Below, one piece after another: positions 4,801-61,991 of a stretch of DNA of 64,000 nucleotides (positions are counted from its first letter, which is position 1; the number at the start of each line of letters is the position of its first letter). The DNA comes from Bacillota bacterium (GTDB taxonomy: Bacteria > Bacillota > Clostridia > Acetivibrionales > DTU013): contig JAEZCA010000035.1 in the NCBI GenBank assembly GCA_023412665.1, positions 136,633 through 200,632 of the forward strand. Direction: 5' to 3'. The notes below the pieces were generated by a model. It was not told where the DNA came from, made no database searches, and saw nothing but the letters and a program-made list of their open reading frames with translations. Made by a program: the position numbers and the translations under genes.

Positions 4801-5075
4801 CTTTGGCTGTGCTAGACGGGGAGGTAGCGGTGCCCTGAACCTGCAATCCGCTGCAGCAGGGTCGAATTCCTGTTCGAGGCTCTGCTTTTGTAGGGTCTGT
4901 TCCATGCAAGTGGCGATGACGACTGGGTCTTGCGCAACGTAAGTCTGTGAACCCCGCCAGGTCCGGAAGGAAGCAACGGTAAGCGGATACTTGCGTGTGC
5001 CGCAGGGTTGCCTGGTTAGAGCCAACTATATGGGTAACGCTTGTAGAAGCAAGTCGACAACAGGTGCACAGCCTT
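4801..5075 (+). ncRNA. ffs: Signal recognition particle RNA, long Bacillus-type (scRNA)
   Basis: GTGCTAGACGGGGAGGTAGCGGTGCCCTG near the 5' end and the domain IV motif CAGGTCCGGAAGGAAGCAAC match the Bacillus scRNA as remembered. The 5' GGCTGTGC pairs with the 3' GCACAGCC. The gene sits directly upstream of dnaX-ybaB-recR, as in B. subtilis. Ends are accurate to about +/-10 nt. Confidence 0.9.
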
Positions 5076-5087
5076 CAATTATAAAAA

Positions 5088-5110
5088 GGTGCGTATATCG
5101 CACCTTTTTT
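5088..5110 (+). terminator. Intrinsic terminator of SRP RNA
   Basis: GGTGCG-TATAT-CGCACC followed by TTTTTT. Confidence 0.8.
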
Positions 5111-5193
5111 ATTTATTCAGACAACATTAGCAGACTGCCTTGGCAAAGCACTTAGTGGGGTCTTTTTTTTGACTTGCCATTTTGATATACTAT

Positions 5194-5356
5194 GTTCATA
5201 ACGCATCTTACCTCTGCGCGTTTCAATGAGGCTGGGAGATATGCTCACTACCTCGTTATAACACTTCGGTTCAAAGAAAATTTTTCGTTTGTAGAAAAAT
5301 TTTCTTTCCTCAGCAGTGTTTCAACGAGGCGGGGGATATTATTCGCCGAGTTATAA
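5194..5356 (+). repeat. Intergenic modular repeat, copy A (rearranged/dimeric)
   Basis: Shares ATAACGCATC, GTTCAAAGAAAA(A)TTTTT..TGTAGAAAA(A)TTTTCTT and ACCTCTGCGCGTTTCAA(C/T)GAGGC.GGGAGATAT modules with 33441..33620. The GTTTCAACGAGGCGGG module occurs twice, and the GTTATAAC-like boundary is repeated. Confidence 0.75.
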
Positions 5357-5383
5357 ATACGGATCAAAAGAAAGGCTGTTGAT

Positions 5384-7150
5384 ATGTCTTACGTTGCTTT
5401 ATACAGAGAATGGAGGCCAACAAGCTTCAAGGATGTGGTCGAGCAGGAGCATGTGGTAAAAGCCCTCCGCTACAGCGTCAGTACGGGCAGGATCGCCCAT
5501 GCCTATCTTTTCTGTGGCACAAGGGGCACCGGCAAAACGACTATGGCACATATATTATCCAGAGCCGTCAACTGTCTGGATCCGCATGACGGCGAGCCCT
5601 GCAACCAGTGCGAGATCTGCCGCGAGATACTCTCGGGCAGCAGCGTCGATGTGCTGGAAATAGACGCAGCCTCAAACAATAGCGTTGACAACGTCCGCTC
5701 CATAAGGGACGAGGTCATATATGCGCCGACAAAAGCAAAACGCAAGGTCTATATCATAGACGAAGTCCATATGCTGTCCACAGGAGCCTTCAACGCGCTG
5801 CTTAAAACGCTGGAGGAGCCTCCTGAGCATGTCATTTTCATACTTGCGACAACTGAACCTCACAAGCTGCCAGCCACTATTCTTTCCCGCTGTCAGCGAT
5901 TTGATTTCAGACGGATATCCCAGGACAGCATTGTGGGACATATTAATAAAATAGCATCATCAGACAGCGTCACACTTGACAATGATGCAGCCAGGCTCAT
6001 AGCCAGGATGTCTGACGGTGCCATGAGGGATGCCATAAGCCTGCTGGACCAGTGTATGTCACTGGGCCGTGAAAGCATCAGCTATGATGATGTACTGTCT
6101 GTCGTGGGCATAGTGAATGATGAATTTATGACAGGCTTCATTGGCGATATGCTTGATAAAAATGTTGTAAAGCTGCTGCAGAACATCAGCAGTCTGGTCT
6201 CAGACGGACGCGATGCGGCGCATTTCGTTTCAGATCTGGTCATGTATTTCAGAAACCTTATGATCTGCAAATCCACCGGCGGAAAGTGCGATGAGCTGAT
6301 AGAGGTTCCGTCTGCTGTTCTATCTATAATGAAGAAACAGGCACAAGCCATATCTCTCGATGAAATAATGCGTTATATCAAAGAGCTGTCTGTATTGGAA
6401 AACAGCCTTAAGTATGCCATAAATCCAAGAGTACTGCTGGAGGTCACTCTGATAAAGGTTTGCGGAAGCAACAGCAGTAATGGAGGCAGCAGCGTCGACG
6501 CCAATGGCGGCGGAAGCATAAGTGCGGATCTTGAAGCAAGGCTGGCCGCAATCGAAAGAAGGCTCGATAGCGGTGATTTCCCCACAGCAGCACAGACTGC
6601 AGGACGTCAACCGGCAATAGCTCATGATTATGGTGACATTCCTCGACCCGAACTGTCGGAACCACCGGTGCATTACGGCGGAAATACCAGCACAGCGCGG
6701 CAGACTGCTGAGAGTAGTGCAAATACGGCAAACAGCGACGAAAAAGTAGTGGCTGCGCAAAAAACACCAGGACCTGTGACATCGGCACAAGAGGCTGTTG
6801 AATACGATAAATGGCCGGCTGTTATGAAACACCTCAAAAGTCTCGGCAAGATGGCCATATACACCATACTGCTCAATATCAAGGCTGTCCTGATCGATGG
6901 CACCACGATCGGTCTTGTTTCCTCGGATGCCGCAATCAGAACTTTGGTAACAAAGATAGAGCATATAAAAATCATCGAAGAGGCAGTTGAAAAAGTAACA
7001 GGCCGTGAAATGAAAATAAAGTGTATAGATGAAGATGTACTGAAGAAGGCAGTCCCGGCAGAAAAACCCCAGGAAAGCAGTGATATGCTCAAACGGGCCC
7101 GCCTCATAGCGGAAAAGGCAGGCCTTCCCCTTGAAATAATCGATGAATAA
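5384..7150 (+). CDS. dnaX: DNA polymerase III subunit gamma/tau
   Basis: Walker A GTRGTGKTT, zinc module CNQCEIC, and DEVHML. The locus order is ffs-dnaX-ybaB-recR. Confidence 0.95.
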   Translation: MSYVALYREWRPTSFKDVVEQEHVVKALRYSVSTGRIAHAYLFCGTRGTGKTTMAHILSRAVNCLDPHDGEPCNQCEICREILSGSSVDVLEIDAASNNSVDNVRSIRDEVIYAPTKAKRKVYIIDEVHMLSTGAFNALLKTLEEPPEHVIFILATTEPHKLPATILSRCQRFDFRRISQDSIVGHINKIASSDSVTLDNDAARLIARMSDGAMRDAISLLDQCMSLGRESISYDDVLSVVGIVNDEFMTGFIGDMLDKNVVKLLQNISSLVSDGRDAAHFVSDLVMYFRNLMICKSTGGKCDELIEVPSAVLSIMKKQAQAISLDEIMRYIKELSVLENSLKYAINPRVLLEVTLIKVCGSNSSNGGSSVDANGGGSISADLEARLAAIERRLDSGDFPTAAQTAGRQPAIAHDYGDIPRPELSEPPVHYGGNTSTARQTAESSANTANSDEKVVAAQKTPGPVTSAQEAVEYDKWPAVMKHLKSLGKMAIYTILLNIKAVLIDGTTIGLVSSDAAIRTLVTKIEHIKIIEEAVEKVTGREMKIKCIDEDVLKKAVPAEKPQESSDMLKRARLIAEKAGLPLEIIDE

Positions 7151-7271
7151 GCGTCTGCAGACAGCCGGGCTCCTGACAGAAATATTTGAATCGATGGATC
7201 GATGACCCTTGAATGACTCAAACAAGTTTTATATAATTAGAAAAGATATCAATGACTACGGAGGTGCCATT

Positions 7272-7619
7272 ATGGCAAAAGGCGGATTTCCGGGCGGCTT
7301 TGGCGGCGGAAACATGAACAATCTCATGAAACAGGCTCAGAAAATGCAAAAGGATATGGAAAAAATGCAGGCTGAGCTTCAGGAAAAAGAAGTTGAGGCA
7401 ACTGCCGGAGGCGGTGCAATAAAAGTCATCGCCACAGGCAAGAAGGAAATAAAGGAAATAACCATAAGCCGTGACGTCGTTGACCCTGATGATGTCGAAA
7501 TGCTGCAGGACCTGATATTGGCCGCTGTAAACGAAGCTATCCGTATGGCTGATGAAATGGTCAATAGCCAGATGTCCAAAATAACAGGCGGCATGGGCGG
7601 ACTCGGCGGGCTGTTCTGA
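7272..7619 (+). CDS. ybaB: Nucleoid-associated protein YbaB/EbfC
   Basis: Start ATG 7272 lies behind a GGAGGTG SD. The [18 protein letters not shown] motif is present, and the gene sits between dnaX and recR. Confidence 0.9.
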
Positions 7620-7620
7620 T

Positions 7621-8223
7621 ATGAGCTATTTTTACGCACCGCCGGTTGCAAGACTTATCGAAGAATTTGAAAAGCTTCCGGGCATTGGTCATAAGACCGC
7701 CCAGAGGCTTGCATTTCATGTACTCAATTTACCTGCTGAAAAATCAGAAGCTCTAGCTAACGCAATTAAAGAAGCAAAACTCAAAACACGTTACTGTTCC
7801 ATATGCAGTAATCTTACCGAATCAGATCCGTGTAATATATGCAGCAGCACAAAGCGGGACCATGGCCTTATCTGTATTGTCGAAGATCCCAGAGATGTGG
7901 TCGCCATGGAAAGGATACGTGAATTCAACGGCATATACCATGTTCTGCACGGAGTCATCTCCCCTATGGAGGGCATAGGCCCGGAAGACATAAAAATAAA
8001 AGAACTCCTTCAGAGGATACGTGAGGGTGATATACGTGAAGTCATACTTGCGACTGATCCCGATGTTGAAGGCGAAGCCACAGCCATGTACATATCCAAG
8101 CTCCTGAAGCCTGTCGGCATCAGGACTACAAGAATTGCTCACGGTATCCCGGTCGGCGGCGACCTGGAGTATGCGGATGAAGTCACCCTGGCCAAAGCGC
8201 TGGAAGGTCGAAGGGAAATATGA
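7621..8223 (+). CDS. recR: Recombination protein RecR
   Basis: HhH N-terminus ([15 protein letters not shown]), Cys4 finger [16 protein letters not shown], and a Toprim region. Confidence 0.95.
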
Positions 8224-8585: not shown

Positions 8586-8960
8586 ATGGCAAGAGAAGCA
8601 TTGGGAAAATGTCCAGTATGCGGACAGAACACTGAAGTCACCACAATATACTGTGACAGCTGTGAGACCAGGATCGAAGGGCATTTTACACTTTGCAGGT
8701 TTTGCAGGCTGACCGAAGAACAGAAATCGTTCATTGAGACATTCATTAAATGCAGAGGAAATATCAAGGAGGTGGAAAGGGAACTTGGCATATCATACCC
8801 CACAGTAAAAAGCAGGCTCGAAGATGCCGCAAATGCTCTTGGCTACGCAAGCGCACAGGGCTATGGCAATCCGGAGAGCGAGAAAAGACTCGAGATACTT
8901 GACAAATTGGAAAACGGCGCGATTTCAGTAGCGGAAGCATTGGATCTGCTGAAATCCTAG
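8586..8960 (+). CDS. DUF2089-type zinc-ribbon + HTH protein
   Basis: CPVCGQNTEVTTIYCDSCETRIEGHF...CRFCRL zinc ribbon, followed by FIKCRGNIKEVERELGISYPTVKSRL (HTH). AAAGGAG SD. Confidence 0.8.
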   Translation: MAREALGKCPVCGQNTEVTTIYCDSCETRIEGHFTLCRFCRLTEEQKSFIETFIKCRGNIKEVERELGISYPTVKSRLEDAANALGYASAQGYGNPESEKRLEILDKLENGAISVAEALDLLKS

Positions 8961-33026: not shown

Positions 33027-33131
33027 ATGTCAGAAAGAGGATGCGGTAATTTCTTAAATGACAATTGCACCATTTTGTTCTTTATTATTCTGTTCCTGCT
33101 GCTGTTCTTCGATAACAGGCATTTTTGCTGA
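33027..33131 (+). CDS. Small hydrophobic peptide P1 (34 aa), not in the ORF track
   Basis: An AAAGGAGG SD lies 7 nt upstream. Product: MSERGCGNFLNDNCTILFFIILFLLLFFDNRHFC. It is followed by a strong terminator and is a paralog of P2. Confidence 0.65.
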   Translation: MSERGCGNFLNDNCTILFFIILFLLLFFDNRHFC

Positions 33132-33174
33132 GCAGCGGTATTGAAGAAAACCGGCAATTAGTAAGTATGTCGTA

Positions 33175-33205
33175 GAAACCACCCTTTAAGGGTGGTTTTG
33201 CTTTG
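33175..33205 (+). terminator. Intrinsic terminator after P1
   Basis: GAAACCACCC-TTTAA-GGGTGGTTTT followed by GCTTTG. Confidence 0.8.
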
Positions 33206-33303
33206 TGGTCGAAAATGCTGTTTGCCAGTAACACATACCTGTGGGTGTGAATATGATATAGAAGGCAGCATGGTCAAACATGCAGATAAAGGAGGTAAAG
33301 CAA

Positions 33304-33429
33304 ATGTCAAAAGGATTCATCGGCGAAGCATTCGACAGTTGCGCGCTCTTGTTCTTCATTATCCTGTTTCTCCTGTTATTCACAGATCACAGGCATTTTG
33401 TAAGAGCTGATACAAATGTAGTCGAGTAA
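33304..33429 (+). CDS. Small hydrophobic peptide P2 (41 aa), not in the ORF track
   Basis: An AAAGGAGG SD lies 7 nt upstream. Product: MSKGFIGEAFDSCALLFFIILFLLLFTDHRHFVRADTNVVE. It shares the LFFIILFLLLF-D-RHF core with P1. Confidence 0.65.
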   Translation: MSKGFIGEAFDSCALLFFIILFLLLFTDHRHFVRADTNVVE

Positions 33430-33440
33430 CAAGCTTAATC

Positions 33441-33620
33441 ATAACGCATCGTTCAAAGAAAAATTTTTGATTGTAGAAAATTTTTCTTACCTCTGCGCGT
33501 TTCAACGAGGCGGGAGATATACTCACCGCCTGAAAGGTAAATCGGTACCCGCCACTAAGCGTTTTCAGCCCGAGGGCTGAAAATACGTAAAGAGGTGGGG
33601 GACATCTATCAACTCGTTAT
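33441..33620 (+). repeat. Intergenic modular repeat, copy B (most complete copy)
   Basis: The copy is bounded by ATAACG...CGTTAT inverted termini. It contains A/T palindromes (GAAAAATTTTT, AGAAAATTTTTCT), a GTTTCAACGAGGCGGGAGATAT module and a 9-bp hairpin TTTTCAGCC-CGAG-GGCTGAAAA. Related copies lie at 5194, 52180, 57097 and 57606. Confidence 0.8.
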
Positions 33621-33638
33621 ATGAAGGGAGTGTATGGC

Positions 33639-33782
33639 ATGGCAGATAATGAAAGAGGCGGGCTTTTCGGATGCGGCTTCGGTTTTAACTGGATCTGGAT
33701 CATCATAATAATACTGGTCATCATCCTGCTGTTTCCCGCAATTTTTGGCAGAGAAGAAGAAGAAGGGTATTATAAGGAATAA
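33639..33782 (+). CDS. Small hydrophobic peptide P3 (47 aa), YjcZ-like Gly/Phe-rich N-terminus; not in the ORF track
   Basis: AAGGGAG SD. Product: MADNERGGLFGCGFGFNWIWIIIIILVIILLFPAIFGREEEEGYYKE. Confidence 0.6.
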   Translation: MADNERGGLFGCGFGFNWIWIIIIILVIILLFPAIFGREEEEGYYKE

Positions 33783-38520: not shown

Positions 38521-38563
38521 TATAAATAATTCCTGTTCTACTGATTAAAAATCCCTGCAAATG

Positions 38564-38572
38564 TGCTATAAT
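38564..38572 (+). promoter_or_regulatory. Extended -10 promoter element (TGcTATAAT) upstream of the SNF2 gene
   Basis: TGCTATAAT at 38564-38572. The -35 box is weak. Confidence 0.45.
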
Positions 38573-38626: not shown

Positions 38627-41600
38627 ATGTTCGATCTATCCATGGAATCCATCCAAGCAAAAACACAGCGCGTGGAATACGAAGCAGGCCAGGAGCACTA
38701 CAGGAGCGGCCGGATAAAGTCCGTACAGTACAATCAGGACCGCCGTACCTTCACCTCCACAGTTTTTGACTCCAAGCTGCAAACACAGCACATGAAATTT
38801 GACAATGCAGGCAAGCTGACGGAAGCAGATTGCTCCTGTCCTGTGGGAAATGACGGCTGGGGCCTGTGCAGGCATATGGTTGCCGTATTGCTGCTCATAC
38901 AGGAGAAGGACAGCAAGGGCTTTTTTCGCGAGCTCCGCTTCCGCCAGGCAGCGAAGGATATATTCAATTTTTTCATGGACAGACAGATCGCCATCCGGTC
39001 TGCTGTAACTATCGAGCCTGTTTTCGAGCTGAACAGGGCCTCCGGCATAGACAATTCCCTGCTGCCTTCATTGAAGTTCCGTATTGGACAGGACAGGCTG
39101 TACATAGTTAAGGATGTAAAAAAGCTTCTCTTCCATATGGAAAACAATACGGACCTGAATTACGGAAAGCGTTTCACCTATTCTCCCTCCAGGCATGAAT
39201 TCAAAGGAAGGGATCTGGAGCTGGCAGAAATGCTCAAGGAGCTCTATGAGACTGAAAAGCTCATGGAGGGGCTGGGGCGCGGCAGGATGGACGCGAGCAT
39301 ATTCTCGGACGGAAAGGTCTATCTGACCGACAGGTATTTAAAACGGTTTTTTGAGATATATGAGGACACTCCTTTTAAGGGATTTATTCTTGGAAATGAA
39401 CACGAAAGCCTGACAATAAAAAAGGAGGACATACCTGTCAACTTTCTGCTGACAAATGACGGGCACGACCTGGTGCTGAATATAGATTTCGAGGGCACGA
39501 TGCTGCCTTTGACGGCAGACGGGGAATACTTCTACTTCGGCGGCGGGATACACCGGGTCTCGAGGCAGCAGAGCGAGTGCCTGAAGCCGTTTTACATGGC
39601 CATGATGTACCAGAAGGGCCGCAAGCTCAGGTTCATCGAAGAAGACAAGCAGCGGTTCGTATCGGAAATACTGCCTTTTGCGGAGAAGGCCGGGAACCTC
39701 ATCATTAGCGAGCAGGTACAGTCAACGATAGAAAAACTCCCATTATCGGCTGAAATCTATTTGGACAGGGACGGCTCCGACATTACGGCCGATGTCAGGT
39801 TCATATACGGCGACAATCAGATCAATCCGTTCCTGCCGGTGATCAAATCTGCCTCCGCCCCAGATAAGCTGCTTATCCGAGAGATAAAGAATGAAGAGGC
39901 AATACTTGATATACTTGGCATGGCGGAATTCAGGGTAAAGGAAGGCAGGATCCATTTGACCGGCGATGACAATATCTACGATTTTGTGTTTAGGCTGGTA
40001 CCGCTGCTGCAGGATTATGCCATCGTATATTACTCCGAAAGCCTGAGAAACATGAAGCTGAAGCAGGCCCTTTCGTTCTCGGCCAGGTTCAGGCTGAACA
40101 GCGTAACCAACCTGCTGGAATTTTCATTCGGCGCCGAGGGTATCGACCGGTCAGAGCTGGCTGAGATATTTGCATCCATCCGCAAGAAGAAAAAATACTT
40201 CCAGCTCAAGAGCGGAAGCTTTATAAACCTTGATACGAACGAGCTTACAAGAGTAAACGACTTCATGGAAAAGCTCGATGTGGACCCTGCGGAAATAGAA
40301 AAGGACTTTATTGAAATGCCAAGATTCCGGGCAGCATATCTTGATCAAAGCATCCGGGAGTCCGGTATCCATAATGTAGAGCGCGATGCGCTGTTCAAGG
40401 AGTTCGTCAGGAACATCAAAGAGCCTGAGGATATGTCCTTTCGTTTGCCTGACGGCTTGAAGGGTTCACTAAGGGATTATCAGAAATTCGGCTTCAAGTG
40501 GCTCAAAACCTTGAAATATTACGAGCTGGGCGGCATCCTCGCCGATGATATGGGACTTGGAAAGACATTTCAGATATTGGCTCTGATATTGTCGGACAAA
40601 CAGGAGCACGGGCCTTCCCCCTCTCTCGTAATAGTCCCCACATCGCTTGTATTCAACTGGTGCGCGGAGATCGAGAAATTTGCCCCGGGCCTGAAGTATA
40701 CTGCGGTGATAGGAAATAAAGAAGACAGGCGCAAGCTCATCGATGGCATTTCGGTATGTGATGTGGTAATAACCTCCTATCCGTTGATCAGAAGAGATAT
40801 TGAGCTCTACGAGCAATATTCCTTCAGGTACTGTATACTCGATGAAGCACAGCACATTAAGAACGGGGCATCCAGAAACGCCCGGTCGGTCAAGCTGATC
40901 AATGCGGCAACCCGCTTCGCTCTGACCGGCACGCCAATTGAAAATAATCTATATGAGCTGTGGTCTATCTTTGACTTTGTTCTTCCGGGATACCTTTATT
41001 CGTACAACAGGTTCGATGAGAAATATGTACGCACAGATGCAGGCGAGGACACAAGCGATTCTCTCGCCGATCTTAACAGGCAGATCAGGCCGTTTGTACT
41101 AAGACGCCTGAAAAAGGATGTTCTGAACGAATTGCCCGAAAAGATAGAGAACACCATGACTGCCGAGCTTACAGATGAGCAGAGGAAAATTTATCTGGCC
41201 TATCTGTCGGATATACGAGGGGAAATAAAACAGGAAATAGAAGCATCAGGCTTTGAAAAGAGCAGGATCAGGATATTGGCGGCTCTGACGCGTCTCAGGC
41301 AGCTGTGCTGCCATCCCTCACTCTTTGTGGAGAACTATCATGGCGGCAGCGGCAAACTGCAGATGCTTGAGGAAATCATACAGGAGTCTATCGAAGGCGG
41401 TCACAGGATACTGCTTTTCTCCCAGTTCACAGCTATGCTGCAGCTTGTACGAAAAAGACTTGATGAGCTTGGTATACCGTACCTCTATCTGGATGGCGCA
41501 ACACCGGTCTCAGAGAGAGGCTTTCTTGTAAATTCCTTCAATGAAGGAGCGGGCAAGATCTTTCTGATCTCCCTCAAGGCCGGAGGAACCGGCCTGAACC

Positions 41601-52179: not shown

Positions 52180-52298
52180 TAGCGCATCGAAAGAAAATAT
52201 CTGAAAAGCAAATTGGTACCTGCCATCAAGCGTTTTTCAGCCCGAAGGCTGAAAATACGTAAAGAAGTGGGACGGGGCCCCATTGTTCACCTCATTAC
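52180..52298 (+). repeat. Intergenic modular repeat, copy D (internally deleted variant)
   Basis: TAGCGCATCGAAAGAAAAT...GGTACCTGCCATCAAGCGTTTTTCAGCC-CGAA-GGCTGAAAATACGTAAAGAAGTGGGA...CACCTCATTAC aligns with both ends of copy B. The hairpin stem is identical and the loop differs (CGAG vs CGAA). Confidence 0.75.
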
Positions 52299-57096: not shown

Positions 57097-57145
57097 GTTT
57101 ATAACGCATCGTTCAAAGAAAAATTTTCGCCATAGGAAAATCACA
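57097..57145 (+). repeat. Intergenic modular repeat, copy E (5' module only)
   Basis: GTTTATAACGCATCGTTCAAAGAAAAATTTTCGCCATAGGAAAATCAC matches the first ~45 nt of copy B and then diverges. Confidence 0.65.
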
Positions 57146-57264: not shown

Positions 57265-57341
57265 GCGCCCGTAGCTCAGCAGGATAGAGCGTCGGTTTCC
57301 TAAACCGCAGGCCGGACGTTCGAATCGTCTCGGGCGCACCA
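57265..57341 (+). tRNA. tRNA-Arg (anticodon CCU), CCA encoded
   Basis: Cloverleaf: GCGCCCG/CGGGCGC acceptor, GCTC..GAGC D arm, anticodon loop TTCCTAA, GGACG-TTCGAAT-CGTCT T arm, and a 3' ACCA. Confidence 0.9.
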
Positions 57342-57342
57342 A

Positions 57343-57383
57343 CAGCCTCAAGCCTTTCAGGGTTTAAGGCTGTTTTATTTTCT
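57343..57383 (+). terminator. Terminator after tRNA-Arg
   Basis: ACAGCCTCAAGCC-TTTCAGG-GTTTAAGGCTGT (imperfect stem) followed by TTTTATTTT. Confidence 0.55.
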
Positions 57384-57485
57384 GTCAGGCATCGGCTTCT
57401 GCCGACTATTTGACTAATCAAATGCACTATTAATTTATTTGCTCATACTTGAATATAGTCAATAATAACTAACCTAATTCCGAAC

Positions 57486-57551
57486 TTATGTTACCTCTAC
57501 ATCTGGGAGCGATGCTCTGACCTTATCTATTAACGGGGTTCCTTTTCCTGA
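57486..57551 (-). pseudogene. Orphan 3' fragment of an LRR-protein gene
   Basis: The minus strand encodes ...SGKGTPLIDKVRASLPDVEVT*, ~85% identical at the DNA level to the true 3' end at 57685..57756 (...SAEVASLADKARALLPDVEVISR*). No upstream ORF is present. Confidence 0.55.
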
Positions 57552-57605
57552 TGTGCCTCTATAGTCGTCTAATGTTCCTCTAAGCATAGACATTGGAGAT
57601 ATAAT

Positions 57606-57652
57606 AGTACCCGCCACCTGTAGAGGTGTGGGACATCTGCTGCCTCGTTATA
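57606..57652 (+). repeat. Intergenic modular repeat, copy F (3' module, hairpin deleted)
   Basis: AGTACCCGCCAC-CTGT-AGAGGTGTGGGACATCTGCTGCCTCGTTATA aligns with GGTACCCGCCAC...AGAGGTGGGGGACATCTATCAACTCGTTATA of copy B. Confidence 0.65.
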
Positions 57653-57684
57653 AGATAGTCACATGACATTATCCATTACCTTTG

Positions 57685-60144
57685 TTACCGACTTATTACC
57701 TCCACATCCGGGAGCAATGCTCTGGCCTTATCTGCTAATGAGGCCACTTCTGCTGATGGATCGTGAAAGATATCAGAAACAGTAAGCTCCTTCAGCGTTG
57801 AAATTTTTGTAAGTGGTGTCAGGTCGCAGTCATTGGGTAATCGAAGCTCTATTTTTCCAACTTCAACGAAGCGGTTGCAGAAATATCACGGCAATTGGGA
57901 GCACTCAAATAAAGGTTGCCGAGATTAGTGAGTTCCTCTATACCGTCAACATTTGTAAGACCGCCGTGGAACTGTCCTGTTTCACCATCGAATTCGCCAT
58001 CTCCGAACAGGCGCAGGGTCTTTAGTGATTTCAATTGCTTTACTGTCTGGAAGGTATCATCATCGCAAGTAATCTCAAGATATTCAAGCTGCTGCTTTGC
58101 TAATATATTGAAATCGGCGTTTTCAACACTGACCAGACTTAGTTCTTTAAATTCCTGCATCCCCGTAAATACATCCAAATCAACAGTATCAACATGACTT
58201 ATAGCTGCAGACAATAATTTTCTAAGTCCGCGTAAAGGCTCGGAAGATGAAAATTGCTCATTATTGTTCACCGAGACATGCTTCAACTCCATGAGCATAG
58301 AAATCGGAGATATGTCCGTGATGTTGTTTTGCGATAGATCAATATGTCCAAAAGCAATCAGACCCGACACTACCGAAATATCGGATATGTTATCAGCGAC
58401 AAAATGAACTATCCTAAGCCTTTTCAGGCAATCGATGTTCTCAGTATCCTCGAGTGCGGGAATGGATAGGTTTTCTTAATCTCTTCTTCATCTTCTCTGA
58501 TTATCTCTCCCCAGATCTCGATCTTCTCAATGAGCTTGACATCGTCATAGTGAATGTCGCCGCTGGGCTTGTCAAGATATTCACGGATCAGCCATTCAAA
58601 TTCCCCATCCTTCCATTCTATAACATAGTCGTCACGGAACTCTATAGAGCTTGCCTCAACGATACCGAGCTTCCGGCCAATTATCTCATCTCCCGTTTCG
58701 TTATAGACACACCGGAGGATTTCCATGGCCTTATCGTACCAGCCTTCTGCCTCATACGCTTCTGCGATGGCGATATAGCCCTCGATGATCGACTTCTCGA
58801 CACCTTTAAGGGCGTGTGTAAGGTTTTTATTGCCGGTAACTTCAACACCTGCCTTGAGCAGATCAATAGCCTCTTGCTGCTTACACTGTCTTGCGGCAGG
58901 GGAATGCCGTTCAATACATAGTTGAGATTGTCTTGCAGGTCTGAGAGCATATAGCCGCCGTTTATGGTGTAGCTCAGCTCCGATCCGTTAAACTGCGCAT
59001 CTCCGTAGACCTCTCCAAACCCTGGCAAGCGCGATTGAGATGTAGTTATTACTATCATCAGTAATGCGCGTTACTTTCTTGTTTGAGATATCAAAGCCGT
59101 TATCGGCAAACGTGAAATCGCTGACGGCAAAATCGTTCGCCAGTTCCTCTACACCATCTTTCTTTCCATTGACGTTCAGGTAAGCCCGAACGGTCGGGTA
59201 ATTGTCGGAGTTTACACGACTGATGAATATAGAAACCCGCTCATATTTGAGCATATTGTTCAGAAACTGCAAATAGCTCCGACTCAGCACAGAATCCGGC
59301 AGGAAAGTGTCTGCCCGTAAGACTGCGCTAATTGCCTTGGCTATGTCGTCATCGGAAGCAGAGGCATCATAGTACACTGTGCCCAGTTCTATCAATGCAG
59401 TTTTTATTGACGAATTATCGCTAATTTTGTCTTTTCGCTTAATAAGGTCAAGCAAAATCTCACGCACCTTGGATTCGTTACCGGAAGCGGAGTAAAGCTT
59501 GGACAACTGTAACTCAATAACCCCGCTTCGGTCACCGAACATCGGCTTTTGAGCGGTAAGCCAGTTGATTATTCTCTTTGCCCTGACACCGTTCGCTTGC
59601 TTGCGGTATTCAGCTGCTTTGGTGAGGTTTTCATCGCGACGGGGATTTCCTTCGTCGTACTTCCTGGCGGTGTCTTCTGCGTCTTCTGCCTTTTTCAAGA
59701 GCGCGGCGACCTCATTGTCACTATCGTCGTATGTAGTTATACTAATGTCCCTTATCAGCTTCTGTGCTATAACATCTGTGTATAAGACGATATTGTCGAC
59801 GGATTTGTCTGCTTCAAGTAGTTTGCGAGCGTTTTCCTCCGCAGCGTCAAGCCCGCCCATTTCATTGTAGTATTTGACGCAGTAGCGAAGCAACTCTTTG
59901 TCATTAGGCGTTTCCAACATCATTTTGCTCAGTGTCTGCGGATCAATCTCACGGTAGTTGTCGCTGCTGAGCATACGGTCACGCTTGAAACCGGATAGAA
60001 ACTCGACCTCGCTCCGTTTTCAACACCATAAACGGCCGCATAGTAGCGTTCTTCCTTTTCCTGAGCCATCACATTTCGTCCAAACAGTGCGGTCCCCGCG
60101 AAAATAGAAAATGCCAATGGCAGGACAATCGCCGATGCGATCAT
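57685..60144 (-). pseudogene. Decayed gene for a secreted helical-repeat / Ig-like / leucine-rich-repeat protein (at least 5 frame disruptions)
   Basis: Track ORFs 59929..60144 (signal peptide), 58988..59974, 58681..59058, 58424..58726 and 57849..58370 (LRR: HIDLSQNNITDISPI) read as one protein when frames are switched near 60005, 59020, 58900, 58445 and 57850. I checked the continuity by translating across each junction. Confidence 0.6.
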
Positions 60145-60158
60145 CTTCGTAATGCGTA

Positions 60159-60695
60159 ATGGACAATCTTCAAGTACAGGAGTATCTCACGCAGGGCGCG
60201 GTACTTGCGGGGCAAGGCAAGCACGGGGAAGCACTTGCTTACTACGACAAAGCTGAGAGGGAAAACCCAATGAACATAGATGTTTACCTTTCGAAAGGTA
60301 TCGCCTATGCCATCCTCAACAAGCTTAACGAGGCTAAAGAACAGTTCGAGAAAGCTCTGAAGGTCAACCGCACGTCAGGGTTGGCGTACTTCCATTTTGG
60401 GAGCATTGCTCTGTTGCAGGGTGACACTGCGCTTGGCTTTGAGAACTACAATAAAGCAATCGCCACGGCTACGACGATGCGCAGCTGTATTACAGTATAG
60501 GTCTGCTTCACGAGGAAAACGGCGAAGCCGATATGGCTATACGTAACTACTCAAAGGTGATCATGCGATGCACTGCGTCCAGATATTCGTATCCGCAAGG
60601 CACGTTTGTTGCTGCAAGGCAATCACTACCCAGAGGCATTACAGACCTCCGATATGTTTAATCAAGTTTCCAACTACCACAAATGTCACTATTGA
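60159..60695 (+). pseudogene. Frameshifted TPR-repeat protein gene
   Basis: TPR units (GEALAYYDKAERENPMNIDVYLSKGIAY...) continue in other frames after ~60465 (GYDDAQLYYSIGLLHEENGEADMAIRNYSKVI) and ~60570 (DALRPDIRIRKARLLLQGNHYPEAL). Confidence 0.5.
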
Positions 60696-61151
60696 TAATG
60701 AGAGGAAGAATACCCCTATAATTGATAAAACAAGCGTTACCCGTGCTTGCATTTTCTTGTTTTCAGCAAGAGCGTCCTCGTCATTCACAATAACATGATT
60801 GCTTTTTGTACAGCGCAAGCTGAGCATTTTACCTATATCGTTCGAATTAAGCCGGGGGTTGGGCACTTGCGTGGTTCCGATGATTTCTTTTCCTTCCGCA
60901 TAAAATCTTACAACTGGCAATAGACCAGGTGCGTTTTCCATATAGTCCTCGTCATAGCTCGAAGCATTGCAGCGATTTCGGGTTAAAATGTCAAACTCAA
61001 GCACCAATTTACGAAAACAAAGCAATTCTCCGGTAATAACAGAAGAATTATTTGTATTGATTTCATATGACGAGTGAATCAACACTGCAGCGATGATAAA
61101 TACGATCCCCATTACAAGCAAGGATATTGAAACAATTAAGACGATGTCCAT
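60639..61151 (-). CDS. Two-TM membrane protein (DUF3592-like topology)
   Basis: Start ATG 61151 (MDIVLIVSISLLVMGIVFIIAAV) lies behind an AAAGGAGGCAGGAGGG SD. A beta-rich middle region and a C-terminal TM follow. Confidence 0.65.
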   Translation of the reverse strand: MDIVLIVSISLLVMGIVFIIAAVLIHSSYEINTNNSSVITGELLCFRKLVLEFDILTRNRCNASSYDEDYMENAPGLLPVVRFYAEGKEIIGTTQVPNPRLNSNDIGKMLSLRCTKSNHVIVNDEDALAENKKMQARVTLVLSIIGVFFLSLSIVTFVVVGNLIKHIGGL

Positions 61152-61170
61152 TTTCTCCCTCCTGCCTCCT

Positions 61171-61443
61171 TTACGCGGCATAATCGAAGTAAAGATACCT
61201 GCTTCCAAACCCCGTTCCATCGCGTATACCGTACTCGCGTAATGTACGCTCGCCACGCAAACGAGCAATCGGTCGCTCGGCTTTCAGGTAATACTGGCTC
61301 ATATCATCATGCTGCTCCGGCAGGAACATCTTAAATAAAGCTGAGCATGATTCATTTGTTGATATGTCTAGCGGAACATCCAAATCATACACGACTCCTT
61401 GCATGATCAAATTGACAGTGACAATCGCGTTGTTCTGGTTCAT
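61171..61443 (-). CDS. YukD/EsaB-like ubiquitin-fold small protein
   Basis: Start ATG 61443 lies behind a GGGGGG SD. IVTVNLIMQGVVYDLDVPLDIS... and ...LREYGIRDG follow the YukD/EsaB pattern (beta1 - YDLxxP - ... GIxDG), as remembered. Confidence 0.5.
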   Translation of the reverse strand: MNQNNAIVTVNLIMQGVVYDLDVPLDISTNESCSALFKMFLPEQHDDMSQYYLKAERPIARLRGERTLREYGIRDGTGFGSRYLYFDYAA

Positions 61444-61640
61444 TGTAATCCCCCCATTATGAGTTAACATAAGCCCTATAGCTGTCTCGTCTGGGAATCC
61501 GGTATTTGACCTCTACCATAATGAAAATCTACCACTACACCTCGCTCACCATGTGACCCTTGGTAGACCACTGCCAAAGGTTGCTGTTGTAATGCAAACC
61601 AAACCTAATATTCCATATATTAGCATAGGGTGGTATGAGA

Positions 61641-61991
61641 ATGCAAGCAATAATTCCCATAATATGCTCTATTCTGACAGCGTTTAATACCATATATGCA
61701 GTTGCTTATCGTCGCTTCTTAGCTAACTCTGTCATTGACTGGAAAGATACCCTAAAGGCTTTGCTTAGATATGACCTCACCGCGGGCACAGCAACCCTTT
61801 TGCGCGGAGTGTCAAGGTTGGCTAGACATGTTTCATATACATTGCGGATTTGCTATGAATGTATTAATGACCCGATGACTATATCATGCATCAATATCAC
61901 TTTTTACTACAGCGGTTTTGTTGCGCAGTGGGACAACACACCGTATCGTAACCGCCGCAACTACGATAATACCTCCCACCAGCGCCCATAG
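61641..61991 (+). CDS. Doubtful hypothetical ORF
   Basis: N-terminal hydrophobic helix and a weak SD (GGTGG). The 3' third overlaps the EamA gene on the opposite strand. It may be spurious. Confidence 0.2.
   Translation: MQAIIPIICSILTAFNTIYAVAYRRFLANSVIDWKDTLKALLRYDLTAGTATLLRGVSRLARHVSYTLRICYECINDPMTISCINITFYYSGFVAQWDNTPYRNRRNYDNTSHQRP

Follow-up and report, generated by a model that had tools for sequence, protein, structure and literature searches.

The stretch of DNA analyzed here, referred to as the window, comprises 64,000 nt of assembly GCA_023412665.1, a metagenome-assembled genome of an uncultured Bacillota bacterium (contig JAEZCA010000035.1, positions 136,633-200,632 of the forward strand). 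At window positions 33027-33782 lie three tandem small open reading frames (ORFs) for hydrophobic peptides, P1 (MSERGCGNFLNDNCTILFFIILFLLLFFDNRHFC), P2 (...FDSCALLFFIILFLLLFTDHRHF...) and P3 (MADNERGGLFGCGFGFNWIWIIIIILVIILLFPAIFG...); P1 and P2 are paralogous (a 66-nt repeat, 77% identical). The spacer between ORFs P2 and P3 is split by an element of 178 nt (33443-33620, plus strand), situated between the stop codon of P2 (33427-33429) and the Shine-Dalgarno sequence of P3, immediately before the latter. A preliminary description of this locus had reported a 180-nt sequence with several structural features and had assigned it to a modular, hairpin-bearing intergenic repeat family. Reading the window confirmed the sequence and its features, coordinates included, and the assignment is now supported by copy number, by filled and empty insertion sites and by covarying stems. 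We consider it probable that this sequence, the reference copy in what follows, belongs to a family of non-autonomous, strand-specific mobile DNA elements; the family is previously undescribed and is a new example of small structured non-autonomous repeats. Genome and metagenome loci that were compared with the window are labeled by an L and a number.

The reference copy is composed of two units. Unit 1 (33443-33501) is the palindrome AACGCA...GCGTT (stem P1) around an A/T hairpin, designated B (33456-33488), with the arms AAAGAAAAATTTT and AAAATTTTTCTT and the loop TGATTGTAG, as indicated by RNA and DNA folding and by covariation of its stem; the two A/T palindromes listed in the preliminary description are the arms of this hairpin. 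Unit 2 (33504-33618) is formed by stem P2, AACGAGGC...(AA)CTCGTT, around GGGAGATAT, GGTACC and stem P4 (33552-33598; CCAC/GTGG, in the family form CCACYT-RTAG-ARGTGG), and is followed by a terminal AT at 33619-33620. Another AT, at 33441-33442 on the 5' side of the copy, represents the target or a 2-bp duplication. The 9-bp hairpin TTTTCAGCC/GGCTGAAAA reported earlier is present (33562-33583), optionally inserted into the loop that the conserved CCACYT/ARGTGG stem encloses; it is common to 52234-52255 and to L036, the latter with a compensatory G:C to A:T change (TTTTCAACC/GGTTGAAAA). The inverted termini TTATAACG/CGTTATAA are complementary as described, but short, and only AACG/CGTT lies within inserted DNA.

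Recurrence of the reference modules in the window, searched by blastn with the 180-mer reference as query, is far beyond chance: there are six further copies or fragments, every one on the plus strand. Matches were obtained at 5269-5339 (E = 2e-12), 52201-52271 (E = 2e-12) and 5206-5248 (E = 6e-10); the one at 57101-57127 is identical to the 5' end of the reference in 27 of 27 positions, and 57607-57638 matches more weakly. With a covariance model (CM) for which 17 canonical copies from other genomes were used, the reference copy itself reaches 114 bits (E = 2e-28). Of the five other sites in the preliminary description, one had been mis-parsed. The site at 5194-5356 consists of two copies in head-to-tail tandem with the shared junction CTCGTTAT↓AAC (arrows mark insertion boundaries): the short copy 1a (5200-5259, plus strand, 60 nt; blastn), with unit 1 lacking hairpin B and a minimal unit 2, and copy 1b (5260-5354, plus strand, 95 nt; CM match 5258-5402, 83 bits), with hairpin B in unit 1 and a minimal unit 2, which ends 29 nt before the dnaX start codon. 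The site at 52180-52298 holds a real copy (52182-52298, plus strand; blastn), but one that is decayed and 5'-truncated, with no 5' terminus at its start. Compared with the subtype of L006, L049 and L051, it retains the interior of unit 2, in which a trace of the P3-insert subtype is left; the optional 9-bp hairpin is present, and the 3' end is degenerate (CCTCATTAC). The 'TTAGCGCATCG' reported for it is an internal GCTCGCATCG of the extra-hairpin subtype (compare L006, L049, L051, L072).

The two remaining sites, formerly delimited as 57097-57145 and 57606-57652, do match the family, with different boundaries. The first is a 5' fragment (57103-57141, plus strand; 27/27 nt identity) that contains the terminus and half of hairpin B and is preceded by TTAT. 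It is located approximately 60 nt upstream of the start (57042) of a minus-strand gene for a protein with surface-layer homology (SLH) and fibronectin type III (fn3) domains, and it goes back to an old insertion, because a decayed counterpart is found in both L086 and L087. The second is a 3' fragment without the optional hairpin (57596-57651, plus strand; GGAGATAT...GTACCCGCCACC-TGTAG-AGGTGTGGG...CTGCCTCGTTAT; nhmmer E = 2.6e-8). That the two once formed a single element, divided by the tRNA segment, is not supported, since the 5' remnant also occurs in relatives without any 3' part.

Outside the window, species-representative genomes were scanned with a degenerate 26-nt pattern taken from the GTTTCAACGAGGC block; the 72 stretches obtained all hold real copies except for one chance match in Binatia; the most matches to this pattern in a single metagenome-assembled genome (MAG) is 13, and the same loci contain 78 strong CM matches. 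The carriers are relatives of cellulose-degrading Clostridia, namely Hungateiclostridiaceae-type MAGs, Acetivibrio mesophilus N2K1 and Ruminiclostridium cellobioparum DSM 1351. Metagenome contigs, scanned with a 5'-end pattern, provided 60 further loci, 39 of them matching the CM at E<=1e-6. The family thus totals about 110 copies over 72 genome loci and 60 metagenome loci, and the copies beyond the window that the preliminary description had proposed to seek by a blastn-type check are distributed over more than 25 MAGs or isolates, with approximately 40 further copies from metagenomes.

The element matches no known insertion sequence (IS), Rfam family, phage or plasmid. At the gathering threshold, Rfam 15 predicts in the window only the signal recognition particle (SRP) RNA and one tRNA; at E<=10, the best scores of the reference and of a canonical copy are 12-20 bits, compared with thresholds of 35-72, and a known RNA family is rejected on both counts. 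Phage and plasmid collections gave no blastn match to the 180-mer, and pattern scans of viral contigs gave 0 and 1 matches, the one being due to chance, so a phage or plasmid origin is rejected as well. A literature search, by taxa combined with repeat terms and by motif strings, returned nothing on the family.

That the family is mobile is shown by exact filled and empty orthologous sites. Upstream of the dnaX copies, the window carries a large, Bacillus-type SRP RNA (4807-5071; Rfam 221 bits) and an intrinsic terminator (5083-5109), followed by dnaX-ybaB-recR (5384-8223); this synteny is kept in relatives, so the empty site can be compared. In the window the site reads ...TATGTTCAT (left flank TCAT), then the insert AACGCATC...GAGTTAT with its two tandem copies (155 nt), then AAATACGG; in a relative whose DnaX is 87% identical, the site is empty and reads ...TATTTTCAT↓AAATACGG, i.e. 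TCAT↓AAATACGG. The whole block 5200-5354 is missing in L075 and L077, and a relative with 80% identity in DnaX likewise has no element. The reference site is filled in the window (GCTTAATCAT, insert AAC...CTCGTTAT, ATGAAGGGAG) and empty in the MAG CAZBEQ (L006), where it reads GCTTAAATAT↓ATGAAGGGAG with the left flank ATAT. The converse case is found at 38563-38572, where the minus strand of the window has the empty target ATTAT↓AGCAC (plus strand GTGCT↓ATAAT, boundary 38567/38568) and L006 has a 183-nt copy (5554-5736 of that locus) at exactly this position. L085 and L087 lack the decayed copy (52182-52298) in their orthologous spacers. Four related species have zero copies in 88 kb of syntenic DNA; most of the window copies are therefore lineage-specific. 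A short copy upstream of dnaX also exists in another metagenomic species (L095, 11820-11894), about 105 nt before the start codon and upstream of a TGATATAAT box; because it has a different position, the spacer between SRP RNA and dnaX was struck independently at least twice.

Within the window species itself, no strain-level polymorphism was seen at window sites 3-5 among six contigs, which are 99.5-100% identical over these sites. ENA and Logan assemblies, like NCBI GCA_023436695.1, contain DnaX and NagB-like proteins identical to those of the window. Two short-read contigs of the species begin within copies (L002 at window position 5326, L084 at 52270), which fits a multi-copy repeat; this evidence is weak, since a contig of a sister species without the element also breaks near dnaX.

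The insertion target is asymmetric, TTAT↓A: the element inserts 3' of TTAT (TCAT or TAT being tolerated) and before A. In the flank profile of 68 bounded copies, T is found at position -2 in 96% and at -1 in 90% before ATAAC, and A in 87% after GTTAT, with the next base weakly W; the mirror position of T(-2) reaches 49%. AT stands on both sides in the three filled sites and once in each empty site. At most, this dinucleotide is duplicated on insertion; as the element itself ends in AT, duplication and its absence are indistinguishable. Complementarity of the termini inside the element extends over 4 nt (AACG/CGTT), below the approximately 10 bp or more of a MITE (miniature inverted-repeat transposable element) with terminal inverted repeats (TIRs), and for this reason the family does not consist of TIR elements. 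The label MITE-like in the preliminary description remains apt for a small, mobile, multi-copy sequence, but not in the classical TIR sense, because its TIRs are of negligible extent and it inserts in a directional manner, 3' of TTAT.

Since a copy ends in TTAT and the next one starts with A, each insertion provides a new target at its own 3' end, and arrays grow head-to-tail. The approximately 12 tandem junctions are all head-to-tail, with zero real tail-to-tail or head-to-head cases. These tandems are not simple duplications, because the partners belong to different subtypes (for example 5200-5259 and 5260-5354).

The empty target at 38563-38572 coincides with an extended -10-like box, TGCTATAAT, located 55 nt upstream of the start of the ORF at 38627, and the L006 insert regenerates TGTTATAAT from its own end (GTGTT) and the flank (ATAAT). 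At 57099-57105 of the window, TATAAA likewise arises at the junction, about 55 nt upstream of the gene for the SLH protein. True -10 boxes were rejected as the general target, since the flanking base that corresponds to the invariant T of TATAAT is A in 31% of the copies, the background level; the explanation fits single loci only.

Family members measure 60-230 bp, with a canonical length of about 150, and the canonical element can be written as TTAT↓AACRCNTCGG-TTCAAAGAAAATTTTTC-GNYTGTA-GAAAAATTTTCTT-ACCTCAGCNGYGTT-TC-AACGAGGC-GGGAGATATGCTCNCCGCCTGAAAACCNAANCGGTACCCGCCACYT-RTAG-ARGTGGGGGAYATCTT..-GCCTCGTT-AT↓A. It is built of two adjacent imperfect palindromic units, each of the form AAC...GTT, which are joined by the 2-nt TC and followed by the final AT. 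Unit 1, AACRCN...NGYGTT (stem P1), encloses the A/T hairpin B and in L094 and L104 is a perfect palindrome of about 26 bp. In unit 2, the nearly invariant stem P2 (AACGAGGC/GCCTCGTT; 97% paired) encloses a variable interior, which is down to 8-14 nt in L013, L022 and L047. The loop motif TRTAG recurs in both main hairpins; of 61 copies, 49 have it in B and 38 in P4. Extra optional hairpins are placed only in loops or junctions, namely in the loop of B, after the 5' strand of P2, in P3 and in the loop of P4. Hairpin B contains phased A4-5T4-5 tracts approximately 21 bp apart, so that bent DNA is predicted.

Conserved secondary structure, which the preliminary description had made a point to check, is present and shows covariation. 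In the covariation set of 61 copies, 93% of the cells are paired, compared with 41-53% when partners are slid along the alignment; double-change cells number 127, versus 42 in shuffles and 13-19 with slid partners, and the covariation score is 0.166 versus 0.03-0.05. The stems P1, B and P4, i.e. the subterminal hairpins, are conserved structurally. Examples are the pairs 6:104 (GC 32, AU 25) and 8:102 (CG 20, UA 19, AU 13) in P1, 20:88 (GC 41, UA 9, AU 3) and 21:87 (AU 33, UA 11, GC 7) in hairpin B, and 252:301 (CG 30, UA 21) in P4. Folding compared with shuffles yields z scores of -4.9 and -4.1 for the two strands and of -5.3 with DNA parameters. G-U pairs (125) and A-C pairs (108) are nearly equal in number, and the constraint therefore looks strand-symmetric, acting at the DNA level or on both strands. 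This comparison was uninformative about the folding strand; for helix 5 it favors the minus strand (28 A-C pairs), for helix 6 the plus strand (22 G-U pairs).

Identity between copies averages 87% within a genome, where the best pair reaches 97%, and 83.5% between genomes; no two are identical. The subtypes ACACTT...AGTGTT and ACGCC...GGCGTT are common to several species. This is an old family under strong constraint, imposed either by the needs of the mobilizing machinery or by a host function. Inside many copies, just 3' of AACGAGGC, we observed a hairpin module of about 42 nt (TGGTCGCAAGC...GCTGCTCGCCCATGCATCC), at times two in tandem; it was seen at L070 (7860-7960), also in L015, L017, L048, L064 and L069, and in reversed orientation in L121, and it may be a smaller mobile unit itself. 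A truncated 5' part of the element at L132 (about 6150-6300) precedes a tandem array whose unit measures about 21 nt (GGAACAAAGTAGTTCGATAAC).

The orientation of the element relative to genes, as judged from crude ORF calls, is biased, about 75-85% of the neighboring genes being on the opposite strand. The gene on the 5' side lies on the opposite strand in 63 cases and on the same strand in 11, the gene on the 3' side in 56 versus 19; both flanking genes are opposite in 49 cases and the same in 6, and 75% of the coding DNA at element loci is on the strand opposite the element. The earlier observation that orientation is constant whatever the neighboring genes holds for the window, but across the family orientation is strongly biased relative to genes and to strand composition. 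When GC skew is split into a transcription term and a strand term, the pooled strand term is -0.043 on the element strand; of the 19 loci with sufficient genes on both strands, 14 give a negative value, 3 a value near zero and 2 a positive one. For the window it is -0.044, and six of six copies are on the plus strand, even where both flanking genes are on the plus strand as well (dnaX; P2-P3). At multi-copy loci, orientation is concordant in all. By analogy with IS200/IS605, this pattern fits insertion into one replication strand; the skew decomposition did not separate replication from transcription as the cause of the bias.

The 56 genes nearest the 5' end of an element represent 86 Pfam families, none of which occurs in more than three genes. 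This functional diversity of neighboring genes excludes a gene-specific leader or riboswitch, in agreement with the preliminary description. Copies avoid coding sequence, and the window genes near them encode ordinary proteins. The dnaX copies are probably part of the 5' untranslated region (UTR) of dnaX, because a promoter-like TTGACT-16-TATGTT is present at 5169-5196 and copy 1a starts 3 nt later. No promoter or terminator of their own was found in the copies examined. A T-box-like leader (AATTAGAGTGGAACCGCGG and a terminator hairpin), apparently a genuine cis-regulatory RNA, is directly adjoined by a 5' fragment of the element at L139 (about 8600-8830, minus strand).

In the neighborhood of the two fragments, tRNA-Arg(CCU) (57265-57341) is followed by about 4.5 kb (57340-61880) that are missing in L086 and L087, where an EamA transporter gene comes directly after the tRNA. 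The extra segment holds genes for leucine-rich-repeat (LRR) proteins and unannotated ORFs, no integrase was seen in it, and it is possibly an island that integrated beside the tRNA gene. Direct repeats of about 48 nt (TTACCTCYACATCYGGGAGCRATGCTCTGRCCTTATCT...; 57491-57538 and 57696-57743) flank the 3' fragment at 57596-57651 and are located just downstream of an LRR gene on the minus strand (57849-58370); possibly they code for LRRs and belong to a gene that the element disrupted. At the other end of the window, an 18-nt tandem repeat with at least six copies (1194-1337) is situated within the minus-strand ORF 914-1447, and the encoded protein therefore has a repeated hexapeptide.

How could such an element move? 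Strict directionality, covarying stems, shared TRTAG loops and the strand bias together suggest an enzyme that acts in trans on single strands. According to this model, movement would be catalyzed by an enzyme that reads the folded single-stranded hairpin DNA together with a short cleavage motif and cuts 3' of TTAT; candidates are an HUH/Y1 transposase (IS200/IS605- or RAYT-like) or a recombinase of the site-specific type that has been proposed for bcr1 at TTTAT. The strand bias places the element strand on the C-rich (lagging-type) strand, and extra hairpins are taken up only in loops, which keeps the fold. A copy inserted into a transcribed spacer would become part of the mRNA, as presumed for the dnaX 5' UTR (5200-5354) and the P2-P3 spacer (33443-33620), and its hairpins could alter mRNA stability or translation. 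Several observations weigh against this interpretation. Neither an autonomous copy nor a transposase with matching ends was found among the 72 and 60 loci, and tblastn with TnpA of IS200 and IS608 gave no match in approximately 1.3 Mb of element-bearing loci. Copies without a 3' end were considered as a possible autonomous parent and rejected, as they have variant termini or truncations and then run into unrelated DNA. The account by replication strand is confounded with gene orientation: among the informative loci, five agree with the skew and not with their flanking genes, two with the flanking genes and not with the skew, and three with neither. A 2-bp AT duplication, as for DDE transposases, looks the same as no duplication, as for HUH enzymes. 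Transcription of the copies is predicted from promoter-like matches. Finally, copy identities reveal no recent burst, and conservation across species could reflect a host function.

Such a function is central to one alternative, according to which the element is a structured RNA module (mRNA-stabilizing, processing or protein-binding) kept by host selection, with mobility that is incidental or historical. It would explain why stems covary while the loops and junctions TTACCTCAGC, GTTTCAACGAGGC, GGTAC and TRTAG are near-invariant across species with 60-80% identical DnaX, why hairpin inserts are confined to loops, and why orthologous copies are kept between species (L005/L029/L063 and L019/L020); the orientation bias relative to genes, the copies in probable UTRs and the lack of a recent burst agree with it, too. 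Yet with G-U and A-C symmetric, neither strand behaves as the RNA strand, and the window copies at dnaX and P2-P3 have the orientation of the minority. Truncation or decay affects many copies, close relatives do without copies and without a replacement, the copies have no promoter or terminator of their own, and the neighboring genes are unrelated. We judge an RNA module to be unlikely. That the element is a conventional MITE descended from a DDE transposon, its inverted ends being very short and its TTATAA-like target giving a 2-bp AT duplication, is quite improbable, although the ends AAC...GTT are inverted, AT is found on both sides of three filled sites and once per empty site, and size, copy number, intergenic location and insertion polymorphism are MITE-like. 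Inside the element, the complementary ends span only 4 nt; the target is asymmetric, with T(-2) at 96% and the mirror position at 49%; from a palindromic target both orientations would be expected, where the junctions are distributed about 12:0:0 in favor of head-to-tail; and no parent IS was found among the loci.

What remains is a host element at the DNA level, a REP/BIME-like site for nucleoid, gyrase or translocase proteins with polarity relative to replication and spread by recombination. Orientation that correlates with strand skew and is concordant within regions, the phased A4-5T4-5 tracts of hairpin B with their predicted bend, and the symmetry of constraint between strands are what such a site would lead one to expect. 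Density, however, is uneven (six copies in the window versus none in 88 kb of syntenic DNA), the precise TTAT junctions indicate transposition rather than recombinational spread, and a covarying fold of 150 nt far exceeds the needs of a polar motif; this explanation is very improbable.

Taken as a non-autonomous mobile element, the family is by analogy most like bcr1 of the Bacillus cereus group, and also resembles BOX or REP. bcr1 is a non-coding repeat of about 155 bp, present in tens to more than 100 copies whose position varies between strains; it has a 'cruciform-like' fold of two independent stem-loops with compensatory changes, and a TTTAT motif at its borders, for which a site-specific mechanism is suspected although no transposase is known (PMC3184786, PMC6542083). 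Compared with bcr1 by its description, the new family shares a two-stem-loop fold of about 150 bp with compensatory changes, variable positions, a short A/T border motif and a host in the Bacillota. It differs in its border, TTAT instead of a duplicated TTTAT pentamer, and in its host, Clostridia of the Hungateiclostridiaceae type, as well as in its extensive optional hairpin modules; moreover, the 180-mer has no blastn match to plasmids, which carry bcr1 copies, an indirect test given that bcr1 was compared by description. BOX of Streptococcus pneumoniae is likewise modular, intergenic and without a known transposase (PMC3184786). Common terminal modules with a variable interior, hairpins and an intergenic location link it to the new family, but the boxA, boxB and boxC sequences are unlike, BOX varies by the number of boxB modules where the new family varies by loop-inserted hairpins, and TTAT insertion specificity is shown for the latter. 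BOX elements form stable hairpins when transcribed.

IS200/IS605 elements such as IS608 and ISDra2 insert 3' of a specific tetra- or pentanucleotide, with an orientation linked to replication. The REP/BIME-RAYT systems are hairpin repeats without TIRs or target duplication, have a short motif beside the hairpin and are proposed to move as single strands (PMC3733652). Directional insertion 3' of a short motif and hairpins conserved in structure are features that the new family has in common with IS200/IS605, with PATE and with REP. REP sequences, however, are 20-40 nt long, GC-rich, mostly proteobacterial, carry GTAG at the foot of the stem and often form inverted pairs, whereas the units of the new family measure about 60-100 nt, have TRTAG in the loops and form arrays only head-to-tail; and unlike in REP-RAYT systems, no Y1 gene was found near the copies (~1.3 Mb of element-bearing loci). 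The attC sites are imperfect palindromes bounded by AAC...GTT, with variable terminal structure, and act as folded single strands. This likeness extends to the AAC/GTT-bounded imperfect palindromes with variable terminal structure described here, but RYYYAAC/GTTRRRY is not matched, the new family having TTATAAC/GTTTCAA and TTTCAAC/GTTATAA; its copies are dispersed among housekeeping genes, singly or in pure repeat tandems, and the junction is TTAT↓AAC, not G↓TT. An attC-like nature was rejected on the grounds of R-box consensus and cassette arrays. Sequence homology is shown to none of bcr1 (by description), BOX, REP/RAYT, IS200/IS605 or attC.

Small structured repeats, REP, BOX, ERIC, Correia and bcr1 among them, influence transcription, the stability of mRNA and the assembly of genomes, and to our knowledge the mobilizing mechanism is still unknown for several of them, bcr1 and BOX included. 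The family presented here provides a second, independent example from the Bacillota, with exact empty sites, an asymmetric target of 4-5 nt, head-to-tail arrays and two covarying hairpin units with a shared loop motif; two cultured carriers, A. mesophilus N2K1 and R. cellobioparum DSM 1351, make it testable, and the mechanism of its mobilization is potentially interesting. On the practical side, a repeat is located in the predicted 5' UTR of the essential gene dnaX, and the contigs L002 and L084 start in copies. A further-reaching proposal, which we regard as rather doubtful, is that the family represents the first REP/RAYT-like or bcr1-like system of Clostridia: a TIR-less element that would be mobilized as folded single-stranded DNA and cut 3' of TTAT by a dedicated, possibly domesticated single-copy enzyme recognizing the TRTAG loops, its orientation recording the direction of replication. 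If this were true, TATAAT-like boxes regenerated at the ends of the element (TGTTAT↓AAT, 38563-38572 versus L006) could rewire promoters and UTRs across a bacterial family.

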